Origin: Octopus vulgaris
Taxonomy: Eukaryota
Assembly (NCBI GenBank): GCA_951406725.2
Contig: OX597820.1
Span: 60,140,001-60,204,000 of the forward strand
Direction: 5' to 3'
DNA length: 64,000 nt
Below are positions 16,585 to 52,826 of this stretch, piece after piece; positions within the stretch are counted from its first letter, which is position 1, and the number at the start of each line of letters is the position of its first letter. A program made the position numbers and the translations under genes. The notes below the pieces were generated by a model that saw only the letters and a list, made by a program, of their open reading frames with translations, was not told the DNA's origin and searched no databases.

Positions 16585-16770
16585 GGAACACAGAAATAAG
16601 CAGAGAGAGAGAGAGAGAGAGAGAGAGAGAGAGAGAAAAAAGTTTAGTGGCTAGCGATCAATCATGGCGAATATATATATATATATATATATATATATAT
16701 ATAAATCTTTTTTCGTAATGCGATAAAAAAACCAAGACTGTGTAGATTTTAGAACATTTATAGACGGAAG

Positions 16771-16818
16771 GTCTGACAGCTGTTTCCAGGATATTTATTA
16801 TATCCCTTCATCGCGGAC
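16771..16818 (-). ncRNA. Minimal hammerhead ribozyme, core-mutated (tandem copy 1)
   Basis: Minus strand: GTCC GCGATGA AGGGATAT..ATATCCTG GAAA CAGCTG TC AGAC. Confidence 0.6.
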
Positions 16819-16925
16819 GGCGTGAGAGGATGGTTCATGGCGAATATATATATATATAAATTTTTTTTTCGTAATGAGATAAAAAACCAAGACAGTGTAG
16901 ATTTTAGAACATTTATAGACAGAAG

Positions 16926-16970
16926 GTCTGACAGCTGTTTCCAGGATATTTATATCCCTTCATCGCGGAC
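16926..16970 (-). ncRNA. Minimal hammerhead ribozyme, core-mutated (tandem copy 2)
   Basis: Same motif 155 bp downstream with a shorter stem II loop. Confidence 0.6.
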
Positions 16971-17035
16971 GGTGTGAGAGGATGGTTAAATCATAGTTAA
17001 TTTAGATAAGATACATTATATATATATATATAATG

Positions 17036-17185
17036 AGCTTCTTCCAGTTTCCGTCTACCAAATCCACTCACAAAACTTTGGTCGGGCCAAAGCTGTAGTG
17101 GAAGATAATTGCCCAATGTGCCAGTAGTGGGACTGAACCCGGAACCATGTGGTTGGGAAGCAAACTTCTTACCATATAGCCATGT
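17036..17185 (-). mobile_element. SINE 5' half
   Basis: GTTTCCGTCTACCAAATCCACTCACAA..GGGACTGAACCCGGAACCATGTGG. Confidence 0.7.
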
Positions 17186-17574
17186 GCAGTAAATAAAGCT
17201 TCTGTTAATTGTTCGTGCGTGTTGTTAATCATTTTGACACGTAGTCTTAGGAAGACATAGTCATTCTCCACCAACATTAAATTCACAAGCACAACACCAT
17301 CTCGACACTCGGAACAAGCGTTTTCTATAGAATTTACAGGTGAAACTTGTATTTTTAAAGGGGTATCATCTAAAACGCTTAATACATTACCTGCAGGTAC
17401 AATAAATATGGGTACCTGTGGATGCAGCATCATTCATGATCTTAATAATAATAAAGAAAACCGTATTTTAGTTTCCTTTGTTTCATAAGTTTACTTTCGT
17501 CACTCAAATTCTTTCGAATTTTGCTTTTGCTTCAGTGCATTCTAAAATAAGGTTTAACAATAAATAACAAGGGA

Positions 17575-17875
17575 CTGGTACTCCGTCGGTTACGACGATG
17601 AGTGTTCCAGTTGATCCGATCAACGGAACAGCCTGCTCGTGAAATTAATGTGTAGGTGGCTGAGTACTCCACAGACATGCATTACCTTAACGTAGTACTT
17701 AGGGAGATTCAGCGTGACACAGAATGTGACAAGGCTGACCCTCTGAAATACAGTATGACTTATTTTTGCCATCTGAGTGGACTGGACCAACCTGAAATAA
17801 AGTGTTTTGCTCAAGGACACTACGTATCGCCGATTTTCGATCATGAACCGAATATCCTGACCTCAAAGCCAGGCG
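17575..17875 (-). mobile_element. tRNA-derived SINE (family with CACGAGCAGGCTGTTCCGTTGATCGGATCAACTGGAAC tail)
   Basis: Copies also at ~30085-30150, 31712-32030, 50090-50210 and 58279-58560. Confidence 0.75.
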
Positions 17876-17959
17876 ATTTCACATAAATAACAATGTAGGT
17901 GCTAAGATAATGACCGAATGGAATGCTAACCATCCCTGAACATCAGGATACATAATATG

Positions 17960-48680: not shown

Positions 48681-49673
48681 ATTATACATACATACATACA
48701 TCATACATACATACATACATATACAAACACACATATAAATACATATTGAAAGTAATAGAAATGAAACTGATATATATATATATATATATATATATAGACA
48801 CATAATGAAAGTAGTTGAAACTGAAATCATATAATAGAGATGTTATTGTTTCACTTTTGACTCGTATATATATATATATATATATATATATATATATATA
48901 TATATATGATAGACTCTCCCGTGGAAGACGTATGAGCATTCAGCTTTTCTCGAATGGCCGGCACACATGATTTGTTTATAGTGACCAAATGTTCGTGCCA
49001 CTCATTAGCTCACCACTCGCCATCAAATTGACGCTGTCTGATCAGATGCATGGTGCACCACACATCAGTTGTCGAAGTGATCAGAGTAACGCGAGATGAA
49101 ATGTTTTGTTCAAGAACACAACAAACCACCCGATCTAGGAGTTGAAGTCACGATCACTTAACCAGCATATGTGTATGTGTATGTGAGTGTGTGTATGTGT
49201 ATACATATGTACACATATATACTTACATATATGCATATACATACATACATGTATTCATACATTATATATATAAAACTGAGAATGTGTACCTATCTGTCTG
49301 TATGTATGTGTGCATCACTAAAACTCGAGAACTATCTAACGGATTTCATTCAAATTTTGCACATGCTTTACTTAGGGTCCATACAGTGTCATGGGCCCAA
49401 AAACATGTACTATTGACTCTGTATATTTGCATCTAGGTATTAATTTGTGTATGTTTATTATCACAGTATTAAGTCGAAAAACTGAGACATTGAGTGTGGA
49501 ACACATATATATGTTTACTAATTTATATTATTTATTTATATCATTATGTAAATGTATATTTTTATATGTATAGGAGTGTGAGTATATGCACTCATATGTA
49601 TATATATATGTTGTATTGTGGGTACGCACCCACACCCATGTGAGTATATATGTAGACTGAGTTATATTACATA

Positions 49674-49800
49674 ATCTCCGAAGAGGCCTTGTGATATTTT
49701 TGTTAATGTCTCATTTATATCTATATATTGACCAACCATAAAGGGCTAATATGGGTAAAATGAGACATACTTATCGACATGGCCGAAACAGCTGTAAGAT
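49674..49800 (+). ncRNA. Hammerhead ribozyme with ~100-nt extended stem II
   Basis: ATCT CCGAAGA GGCC..TGTCTCATTT...AAATGAGACA..GGCC GAAA CAGCTG TA AGAT. Confidence 0.7.
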
Positions 49801-50327
49801 CTAATTTATACTTATATTTATATTTACTTGTATTTATATTCTCTTTCATATATATTCTACTTATTATACAACATTACTCTTTTATGTACACTTTTTTATG
49901 TACATTCCTTTATGTACACTGATTTGTTCTGCTTTTTATATTTAATCCTACAGTCTCTTATGTGGTGGTTTAATAAAGTATGTGATTGAGTATTATCTGG
50001 TAATTGATATTTGATTTAGATGTATTTCTCCATTTTCTTATCTTGTATATATATATATATATATATATATATATATATATATATATATCGAGGCACTCCG
50101 TCGGTTATGACGACGACGAAGGTTCCAGTTGATCCGATCAACGGAACAGCCTGCTCGTGAAATTAACGTGCAAGTGGCTGAGCACTCCGCAGACACGTGT
50201 ACTCTTAACGTATGTATGTATGTATGTATGTATGTATGTATGTATGTATGTATGTATGTATGTATGTATGTATGTATGTATCTCTCTCTCTCTCTCTCTA
50301 TATATATATATATATATATATATATAA

Positions 50328-50495
50328 TCAATTAATCAATTTAGGGTAGCAAAAATAGTCTAGTGAGAAAGAGGAAATAGTCAGAGACTATAAATAAATT
50401 CAACAACAATTGAGGAACGGCCACAATAGGCCGTTCGACCCACTAGAAAGAGGGTCGAACGGCTTATTGTGGCCGTTCCTCAATTCTTGTTGAAT
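50328..50495. mobile_element. (TA)n-embedded hairpin element
   Basis: ~44-bp inverted repeat 50398-50441 / 50452-50495; family of 9149-9711. Confidence 0.6.
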
Positions 50496-50506
50496 ATATA
50501 TATATA

Positions 50507-51670
50507 ACGTAGAGTAGATGAAACCTTAGCGACTGAAGAAGGGGTTTTTTCGTTGTGTTAATTGTCCTGTACTCCATTTTTTGTTGTTTTTAAAAAAAAT
50601 GTCCTGTTCCTTTGGTTTGTGTCTATGTTTTCGTTTCTCTTTGTGTTCGACGTCCCTTTGGTGTCCTGTACTCATATATGCGTGTATATGTACATGTAGA
50701 GGTAGGTACGTACATATATGTTTATATATATGCATATGTTTTATTTCATTTATTAATATATTATATGACAACGCACGCACCCTCTTAAGTAAGATTGTTC
50801 TGTATATCAAGTTTCGCCTTGATATTAACTCTCACGCGCACTCTTCATCTTTCAGTCTCATCCCCATTCTTTGATTTTCTTTTTCTTCTTTTCCCCCTAC
50901 TTAACTCGTCTCTTCCTCTCTCTCTCATTCTTCATTCTCTCTCTCCCCCTTACCATTCTTCATGGCCTCCTCGCACCATTCCCCTTCTTCTCTCCCTTCC
51001 TCTTGCTCCTCCTCCCCCCTTCCCGTCGTCCACCCGCGACGATACTTCCGCCCTGACTGCTAACTTTCTTTCTCGCCTGGCCTTCGAGGCAACTGGACGA
51101 CTTTTCCTGCTCTCTCGTCGTTCACAAAAAATTCTGCGTTTGCAATACTTTTTTCGTTTGGCGTCAACAGCCCTTCTTATCTTGTTTTCCCTGTCCTGTC
51201 TTTTACTGTTATATATATTTTTTTACTGTTTATATATTTTTTTACTGTTTTTTTACTGTTTATATTTTTGTACTGTCGTTATTGTCCTGTTTTTTTACCA
51301 TTTTTTTACCATTTTTTACCCCTCTGCGAAAAGATCTCAGAATTTTAATTGATTTGCTTTTCGCAGGAAGGAAAGTTTCTTGTCGAAGATACGTCTCGCT
51401 TTTATCCTTCGAAACGTAGAGTAGATGAAACCTTAGCGACTGAAGAAGGGGTTTTTTCGTTGTGTTAATTGTCCTGTACTCCATTTTTTGTTGTTTTTTA
51501 AAAAATGTCCTGTTCCTTTGGTTTGTGTCTATGTTTTCGTTTCTCTTTGTGTTCGACGTCCCTTTGGTGTCCTGTACTCATATATGCGTGTATATGTACA
51601 TGTAGAGGTAGGTACGTACATATATGTTTATATATATGCATATGTTTTATTTAATTTATTAATATATATA
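50507..51670 (+). mobile_element. Non-coding element with ~255-bp direct terminal repeats
   Basis: 50507-~50760 repeated at ~51414-51668 (offset ~907); pyrimidine-rich interior. Confidence 0.65.
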
Positions 51671-51674
51671 TATT

Positions 51675-52826
51675 TGTTTTTTTATATTCGTCCCTTTTGC
51701 TGTCCTGGTGTCCGTATGCATTCGATCCTTCTTCCAGGAAATCTACGCTCCCAGCTTAGTTTTTTCTAATGCTCGTTGCTTAGTTTTTCTTGGAGGGCTG
51801 GCCGTGATCTAGTAATCTCAAGATTAATCAGCCGAAATTACTACGATGATCCGGTTCTTGACTGAAGACTGAGGGTTTCGAATGTCCTGTCCGTGTTTAT
51901 TGTATCGTCTTCTAAGAGTTATACGTTCTTGTCCATGTTGTATTTTTCTACATACCTTAACATATATTCCAGGCGCCACGTACCCTCTTAACATTAATGT
52001 GAGCACATATTCTTAATAACTGGTACGACTCTTTGTTTGTCTCTCTCTCTCTCTCACTTTTACTTGATCTGTCCCCTTCTCTCTCTACTCATCCTCTTTT
52101 TCTCTTCTCTTTCCTCTGATTCTTTGGTCTAATCTTCCACTACCCTCCTATTTCTTTGTCTCGCTCTGCACTCACAGGTCGCTCTTCGACACCCATCCCT
52201 TCTCCTCTCTGATTCCTTCTTTCTCTCTCTTCTCGCTCTTTGTCGCGTTTGTCCCTCCTCTCTCTCTCTCTCTCTCTCTCTCTCTCTTCCGTTGCTTCTC
52301 TTTCTTTTCTTTTCTCTCTTCTCTGTCACGTGACTGCTGGCCGAAATCTGCCTTTCAGCTTCTGACCAGCGTCGTGTTAACATCGTTGTTTTTCGTCCGC
52401 CGCTATAGGCATCGCCGATAAGGCTCCTTTCCTTGCGCCAGAGGAAAAAATTTGTTTGCTTGTTATCAGTCGTAAGACACTTGTTGTTGTTTTCACCGTT
52501 AATGCTTCTGTATTTCATGTTTCTGTATTCCATTATTTTTTTGTTTTTTTATATTCGTCCCTTTTGCTGTCCTGGTGTCCGTATGCATTCGATCCTTCTT
52601 CCAGGAAATCTACGCTCCCAGCTTAGTTTTTCTAATGCTCGTTGCTTAGTTTTTCTTGGAGGGCTGACCGTGATCTAGTAATCTCAAGATTAATCAGCCG
52701 AAATTACTACGATGATCCGGTTCTTGACTGAAGACTGAGGGTTTCGAATGTCCTGTCCGTGTTTATTGTATCGTCTTCTAAGAGTTATACGTTCTTGTCC
52801 ATGTTGTATTTTTCTACATACCTTAA
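51675..52826 (+). mobile_element. Non-coding element with ~285-bp direct terminal repeats
   Basis: ~51675-51960 repeated at ~52541-52826 (offset ~866); CT-rich interior; ends in (TA)n. Confidence 0.65.

Follow-up and report, generated by a model that had tools for sequence, protein, structure and literature searches.

In almost all families of the Hydra clade of Penelope-like elements (PLEs), canonical hammerhead ribozymes and insertion into (TA)n have been reported (PMC8557442, Craig et al. 2021), and an inverted layout is known from PLE insertions in the same paper. Minimal hammerheads on opposite strands have also been described, with a G10.1-C11.1 pair called highly conserved in PLE hammerheads (PMC4209133, Cervera 2014), and a purified PLE, Poseidon, was found to cut AT-rich DNA and to start at internal sites (PMC11167929, Frangieh 2024). 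Predicted dimers of Xenopus retrozymes cleaved in vitro in only one of nine cases (bioRxiv 10.64898/2026.07.22.740005, Li, Clavereau and Pollet 2026). A system joining PLEs and retrozymes is already published in outline (PMC8557442; PMC7229834; bioRxiv 10.64898/2026.07.22.740005). In Octopus vulgaris, PLEs make up 6.83% of the genome, with 190 families, 31 of them recently active (PMC13282606, Bonar 2026); the supplement of that paper mentions neither hammerheads nor retrozymes, and Craig et al. was the sole result when we searched the open-access literature for octopus together with either term. Here we describe a stretch of 64,000 nt from Octopus vulgaris (contig OX597820.1, positions 60,140,001 to 60,204,000), termed the window, and a hammerhead-bearing non-coding unit within it, termed D. 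All coordinates below are positions in the window, and hammerhead positions follow the conventional numbering.

We read the region as a stack of Penelope-type insertions in (TA)n, with D likely a non-autonomous retrozyme that uses the enzymes of an intact PLE from elsewhere. The observations behind this are the hammerhead motifs, the tandem layout, the (TA)n junctions with their fixed 3' and varied 5' ends, and the Hydra anatomy of a second element, B. The parts of D are as follows.

45462..46464, minus strand: family D, retrozyme-like and non-coding, with a unit of 534 bp that is present head to tail 1.88 times (469 bp + 65 bp + 469 bp).
45738..45835, minus strand: D hammerhead 1, canonical type I, core from 45821, with GUC cleavage predicted after 45752.
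46272..46369, minus strand: D hammerhead 2, identical to hammerhead 1, with cleavage predicted after 46286.
45428..45465, no strand assigned: (TA)n tract at the D 3' end.

The D repeats have a single mismatch in 469 bp and a GC content of 32%, and stop codons run throughout all three sense frames. In a tblastn comparison of D with 42 PLE-related proteins there was no match below E 0.4. Hammerhead 1 has a stem I of 7+5 bp, the G10.1-C11.1 pair and a palindromic stem III. It is itself the predicted minimum-energy fold (−24 kcal/mol, z −3.74, 0 of 200 shuffles), well below the −5 kcal/mol that Li et al. use as their limit for a stable fold. The two predicted cleavage sites are 534 nt apart, as are the cores at 45821 and 46355 in bp, and the monomer folded as a predicted circle scores z −8.2 against 60 shuffles. 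Complete type I hammerheads in successive tandem units are the arrangement by which retrozymes are recognized, and D has it; judged on its sequence features, it would class as a non-LTR (long terminal repeat) retrozyme. Its length is within one published retrozyme range (51–972) and above another (150–450). At its 5' end D meets TATT/TA repeats at 46465–46513.

Much of what we say of D beyond the window rests on public contigs aligned to one D unit. The unit was present in 20 of 24 listed public runs, from 10 studies and under 8 organism labels; one run may be the source of the window. Four of the D-bearing runs were compared, that possible source not among them, and the head-to-tail joint was found in all four. 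There were 4381 and 1166 D contigs in two runs, and summed word depths of 2e5–1.5e6 in two large runs, a measure of an abundant repeat and not of copy number. Depth over the 65-bp linker does not collapse, and the share of aligned sequence running into unlike sequence was 0 in both large runs. D is a young, abundant and probable retrozyme family, which may already stand in the Octopus vulgaris repeat library (Zenodo) under another label. Across the 8 organism labels it keeps 74–100% of its 31-letter words, a high figure for non-coding repeats should the labels stand for distinct species. A diverged sister subfamily was seen in three runs (loose ends 45800, 45845), with the core kept and N7 changed.

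We sorted by eye the 20 loose ends of D that were displayed, out of 100: 12 led into D variants, five into pure (TA)n and two into partly TA-like sequence, and one was unrelated. TA joins fell at the D 3' end (45996 and 46000, the window's own join being the equivalent of 45999), and at varied points in its 5' direction (45704, 45932 and 45993). Joins at the 3' end together with varied 5' ends mark the tract as target, not tail, and these junctions, all in TA, resemble PLE insertion. The only common DNA variant listed within the hammerhead, at 45817, is at N7, the free position of the core. Two probable RNA runs, X18 and X7, cover D from end to end and read across the cleavage site as well as the joint between units, in contigs that cannot separate a circle from a multimer.

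The junctions of D can be set beside those of the other elements in the window.

46513..47271, no strand assigned: family A, one event, an inverted head-to-head pair (A3 + A4).
16706..17016, minus strand: family A, second event (A1 + A2), with decayed hammerheads (C3G, U4C), both ending at (TA)n.
47306..48694, minus strand: element B, a 5'-truncated Hydra-type PLE comprising an endonuclease relic and ∼875 bp of 3' untranslated region with a hammerhead, ending at (TA)17.
47405..47437, minus strand: minimal hammerhead of B, with U4C, an extra A after A9, a 4-bp stem II and a 3-bp stem I.
48182..48694, minus strand: Hydra-type GIY-YIG endonuclease relic with CxCX5C linker, decayed around its second motif.
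49674..50045, plus strand: element C, a single copy ending at (TA)21, its hammerhead with U4C and a 110-nt stem II.
22069..22330, minus strand: element E, a single copy ending at (TA)7, its hammerhead reduced to the GAAA half.
16465..16601, minus strand: B-like minimal hammerhead, decayed, with (CA)n on one side and (AG)n on the other and not at TA.
9146..9700, minus strand: family H, a 452-bp unit homologous to D (z 13.9, 0 of 300 shuffles), with an inverted head.
50327..50504, no strand assigned: H remnant, an inverted pair with a TA tract on either side, related to the unit at 9146–9700.
50506..51673, plus strand: family F, a non-coding partial tandem of 907-bp period, its 262-bp repeats 98.5% alike, with TA at both ends and no valid hammerhead.
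51667..52833, plus strand: family G, a non-coding partial tandem of 867-bp period, its 301-bp repeats 98.3% alike, with TA at both ends and no valid hammerhead.
53199..53738, plus strand: PLE reverse transcriptase (RT)/thumb relic, decayed, with many stops (E 3e-15).

A first-pass annotation had noted that such elements end at TA-rich or other dinucleotide tracts. Its three example junctions, at 47272, 16702 and 16858, are present; the fourth copy of family A (46666) does not join TA directly, with ∼150 bp of further sequence before the tract. Taking an end within 3 bp of a tract of at least 4 TA units as a TA end, we counted seven independent, alignment-defined PLE-type events: A at 16 kb, A at 47 kb, D, H at 50 kb, F, G and H at 9 kb. 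B, C and E do not enter the count, since it is the tract that marks where they end. Six of the seven had a TA end, where 3.0% of all window positions and 6.3% of those in 45–53 kb are near such tracts (binomial p 5e-9, or 4e-7 on the cluster background). Among other dispersed repeats only 3 of 45 segments (3 of 90 ends) had one (Fisher p 2.7e-5); within the window, ends at (TA)n thus far exceed both chance and the rate in other repeats. The annotation also suggested that the elements may contribute to the microsatellite-rich landscape; no large contribution is evident, as by our count by eye ∼12 of the window's 67 TA tracts touch these elements, so that most microsatellites here need another cause.

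Searching the window with a descriptor of type I hammerheads, made up of the core, stems I and II and a short stem III, gave four hammerheads with perfect cores, at 45821 (−), 46355 (−), 46780 (−) and 47157 (+), and six when U4C was allowed, adding 47434 (−) and 49678 (+). In 200 block-wise dinucleotide shuffles of the window the mean count was 0.035–0.04 and the maximum 1. An Rfam scan of the window gave 130 matches, none to a hammerhead; these were microsatellite artefacts, save one tRNA-like match. The first-pass annotation overlooked the perfect motifs at 45821 and 46355, as well as a near-intact core at 9265, which lies beyond its range. Four of the six hammerheads that it did list (46733, 47153, 47405 and 49674) pass the descriptor, two with the core intact (46780, 47157) and two with U4C (47434, 49678). 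The other two, at 16771 and 16926, do not pass it, having the changes C3G and U4C and a mismatch where stem I should close, and are likely dead. As for the motifs it had called degenerate, 16551 is indeed a decayed B-like minimal hammerhead with three core changes and at 22177 the GAAA half and the cleavage triplet are all that is left, but that at ∼51400 falls away, since its GAAA half is joined by no valid CUGANGA half.

The alternative that best withstands these data is that D is only the pseudo-LTR (pLTR) of an autonomous PLE, its copies being 5'-truncated partial tandems made from full-element RNA, with no free cycle of small RNA. PLE copies are reported to be mostly 5'-truncated partial tandems (PMC8557442), retrozymes have been reported as pLTR-derived (bioRxiv 10.64898/2026.07.22.740005), and the explanation fits families A and B well. 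Poseidon, the one PLE studied in vitro, inserted without needing hammerhead cleavage (PMC11167929), which also speaks for it. For D, however, it is unlikely. The unit closes on itself in four of four runs, keeps its depth across the linker and, in the large runs, never runs on into unlike sequence; no PLE protein matches it in tblastn; and its hammerhead is canonical, not of the minimal PLE type.

Decidedly less probable is that D is a satellite spreading at the DNA level, by unequal exchange or rolling-circle DNA, with the hammerhead an inherited relic and the TA tracts mere breakpoints. Very high summed depth and head-to-tail joints do fit arrays, and local amplification of retrozymes as minisatellites has been proposed (bioRxiv 10.64898/2026.07.22.740005). 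Against such spread stand the polarity of the junctions, with a fixed 3' end and varied 5' ends, and a conserved core that changes only at N7; and the transition variants are strand-skewed, with 7 of 7 pyrimidine on the plus strand, pointing to an RNA step. That the TA tracts grew after insertion from the elements' AT-rich ends, as with the tails of short interspersed nuclear elements (SINEs), with no targeting, is most improbable: element ends are AT-rich and other window repeats adjoin (CA)n tails, but TA joins the D 5' truncation points at different places and stands at both ends of F, G and A2.

Under the preferred reading of D as a retrozyme served by a PLE, the published model (PMC7229834; bioRxiv 10.64898/2026.07.22.740005) would have D transcribed as a multimer and cut at each hammerhead into a 534-nt monomer, probably with two D copies pairing and thereby steadying the short stem III. 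A host ligase would then close the monomer to a circle. We infer that a PLE endonuclease would nick (TA)n and that the free end would prime reverse transcription at a set site in the AT-rich end of the unit; copying that halted early, or went more than one round of the unit, would leave less or more than one unit. Each insertion would split its tract and leave new TA targets, which may have produced the pile-up at 45.4–52.9 kb.

Several points weigh against this reading. No intact PLE was found, and D is not linked by sequence to either local relic. The unit H at 9146–9700 does not end at TA. The seven junction events were picked post hoc, and those of the cluster would be dependent if insertions create targets. 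At 534 nt, D is longer than invertebrate retrozymes (170–400 nt), falling within the vertebrate range of 51–972. Eighty of the 100 loose ends were not displayed, so a low-copy link to a coding element is possible. Contig data hide the ends, strand and circles of the D RNA, and the RNA label of X18 and X7 is an automatic guess, no listed D-bearing run being recorded as RNA. With one in nine Xenopus dimers cleaving, an intact motif is also no proof of activity. A young, abundant family with PLE-like junctions makes the proposed, unproven PLE-retrozyme partnership easy to test in one genome.

Family H is homologous to D; to A, B, C, E, F, G and the short H remnant, D showed no significant likeness. 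The H unit at 9146–9700 has the same 3'-terminal signature as D, the last 80 nt being common to both, and an intact core at 9265, with one mismatch closing stem I. It interrupts or adjoins a LINE-like (long interspersed nuclear element) relic. A site which we take to be E2F-like lies on the minus strand at the same place in D (45948) and H (9355), just past the 3'-terminal signature, and is a possible internal promoter; the window has three occurrences of the pattern.

The two probable RNA runs differ from the large runs at eight D sites, all T-to-C on the plus strand (that is, A-to-G on the hammerhead strand), changes nearly absent from the large runs. At 45674, 45691 and 45699 the T-to-C fraction was 4.5–34% in both X18 and X7, compared with 0–0.54% in the large runs; five further sites were at 6–7% in X7, two of these also at 1.5% in X18. 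The variant table holds no RNA-enriched A-to-G on the plus strand (p 0.001 for 8 of 8). Predicted stems hold six of the eight sites. ADAR enzymes have neighbour preferences, and a 5' G precedes none of the eight. At one X7 loose end (2 contigs), compared by eye, 7 of 12 T had become C in 30 letters of D with no other change; the changed positions include core A13 and A15.1 and both sides of the cleavage site. These patterns suggest that D RNA is likely subject to A-to-I (adenosine-to-inosine) editing. In the DNA, all 7 transitions among the common variants of D are T/C on the plus strand (p 0.005), and two of six stand in UAG context (p 0.03), in tests that were post hoc and on unpolarised variants; the skew would fit re-insertion of edited RNA.

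Counting against editing, one minority variant makes up most of X18 (100% at 45951 and 46053), the hammerhead in X18 is unchanged, and one X18 contig has two A-to-G on the plus strand. The RNA status of both runs is guessed, and what they are set against is the two large runs, not DNA from their own individuals. Animals widely edit the RNA of repeats, so that of D may be incidental. The fuller proposal, that D is an actively cycling retrozyme targeted to (TA)n, that ADAR edits its RNA, at times within the core, and that the edited RNA is reverse-transcribed back into the genome, host editing both blocking self-cleavage and writing heritable variation, we put forward tentatively, as a possibility with the odds against it. 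If true, it would explain the sequence spread of animal retrozyme RNAs and what stops the ribozyme from cutting the circle. Cervera and de la Pena suggested editing as one way in which retrozyme RNAs might come to vary, and pointed out that the ribozyme of the circle has to be kept from acting (PMC7229834); in the open-access literature we found no dedicated paper on retrozymes or hammerheads together with ADAR editing. If the signal holds, ADAR would be tied to the control and evolution of a ribozyme-bearing mobile RNA.

Elements A, B, C and E are likely truncated 3' ends of PLEs of the ordinary sort, their hammerheads minimal and mostly decayed. The first-pass annotation had suggested three families, corresponding to A, B and C, as stand-alone ribozyme RNAs, which their anatomy does not support: B is the 3' end of a Hydra PLE, A has an inverted, 5'-truncated layout, and C is single. 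None offers the head-to-tail units with complete hammerheads found in D, the duplicate in A being inverted or decayed, and B and C being single copies. In the A pair at 47 kb, A3 (46666–46969, −) continues in a 150-bp extension to TA at 46513, and A4 (46976–47271, +) ends at (TA)17; their cores are intact at 46780 and 47157 but lack the G10.1-C11.1 pair. A1 and A2 (16771, 16926) are one event, because the flank beyond the TA tract is common to both. Read by eye, C11.1 is replaced by G in all four A copies; the CUGANGA and GAAA core is intact in A3 and A4 and not in A1 and A2. The ∼150 bp beyond the end of A3 (46513–46660, −) may be where the parent PLE's next tandem unit begins; a homology search for this extension found nothing. 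Two short frames beside family A resembled PLE protein ends but gave no usable Atlas match and no tblastn match. C has the same stem III and cleavage site as family A, with 15 identical bases.

The hammerhead at 47405 and the GIY-YIG endonuclease, which had been listed as separate items, belong to the same PLE copy, B. Its endonuclease relic matches P0002 with 36% identity over 173 aa (E 4e-28). B has its hammerhead in the 3' region (47434, U4C) and its end, 47306, beside (TA)17; with the CxCX5C linker and the published Hydra hammerheads and (TA)n insertion, this makes it a plain truncated Hydra-clade PLE, a dead copy whose RT part is missing. The RT relic matches RT plus GIY-YIG proteins, and its homologs carry a Neptune-type linker; no endonuclease or hammerhead is attached to it, and it has no sequence in common with any hammerhead unit. 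Pfam recognized neither the endonuclease relic nor the RT piece directly.

Both relics had been noted before, and both are real (48182–48694, E 4e-28; 53199–53738, E 3e-15). They are decayed and of different clades, and the RT relic is unlike the hammerhead units, so nearness does not name them drivers; neither can be a working driver. Of the earlier idea that PLEs mobilise ribozyme RNAs here, the TA ends, the Penelope-like insertions (inverted heads, partial tandems) and one retrozyme-like family thus stand, and the local relics as drivers do not. Within the window and the public contigs, nothing joined A, C or D to an RT-endonuclease frame. A search of metagenome contigs for Hydra-type loci gave 97 pattern matches and no confirmed relative, and the D-hammerhead pattern gave two matches in metagenomes, both by chance and unlike the window.

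F and G are young families that likely travel on the same machinery as non-autonomous passengers lacking a hammerhead. They are distantly alike, with a score reached by none of 200 shuffles, though both are CT-rich. Examined by eye as type I or type II hammerheads, they were rejected, stem I or the core being missing and the folds no better than shuffles. Each has a lone CUGAAGA and repeated short motifs near its 3' end.

The window as a whole is AT-rich animal DNA, dense in microsatellites. At 37358–38347 (−) a single-exon open frame of 329 aa matches rhodopsin-family G-protein-coupled receptors (PF00001, E 7.5e-20). The tRNA-like match, at 58288–58353 (+), is just over the Rfam threshold in a dispersed repeat and is likely a tRNA-derived SINE head. 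Decayed coding relics at 1741–5000, 11430–12000, 13390–15330, 27864–29900, 40173–40703 and 57372–57707 we take, from their look, to be LTR retrotransposons, DNA transposases and LINEs.

Compared with known systems, F and G are like the hammerhead-less PLE derivatives (MRC1 of Chlamys and Naiad-type ends; PMC8557442), which are likewise frameless partial tandems with a microsatellite bias and no canonical hammerhead; no parent element was found for F or G. A, B and the motif at 16551 resemble PLE minimal hammerheads: stem I is short and stem II longer, a further base follows A9 and stem III is palindromic, and they form inverted pairs a few hundred bases apart and many scattered, variable copies. 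They depart from that type in family A, where four of four copies lack G10.1-C11.1, and in C, with its 110-nt stem II; neither A nor C could be matched to a full element. B shares with Hydra PLEs (PMC8557442) the CxCX5C linker before the endonuclease, the hammerhead of the 3' region, (TA)n insertion and an occurrence in molluscs, and is unlike them as a dead, 5'-truncated copy without RT and with U4C in its hammerhead. For D the nearest system is that of the animal non-LTR retrozymes (PMC7229834; bioRxiv 10.64898/2026.07.22.740005). Cleavage and circles have been demonstrated for published retrozymes, whereas D is known here as a sequence, and (TA)n targeting, as proposed for D, is not described for retrozymes in the parts of those two sources that we consulted. 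What D has in common with them, among which a mussel example is published, is a GC-poor, non-coding tandem unit that carries a single type I hammerhead whose stem III is short and palindromic, a self-paired predicted circle and PLEs in the same genome.

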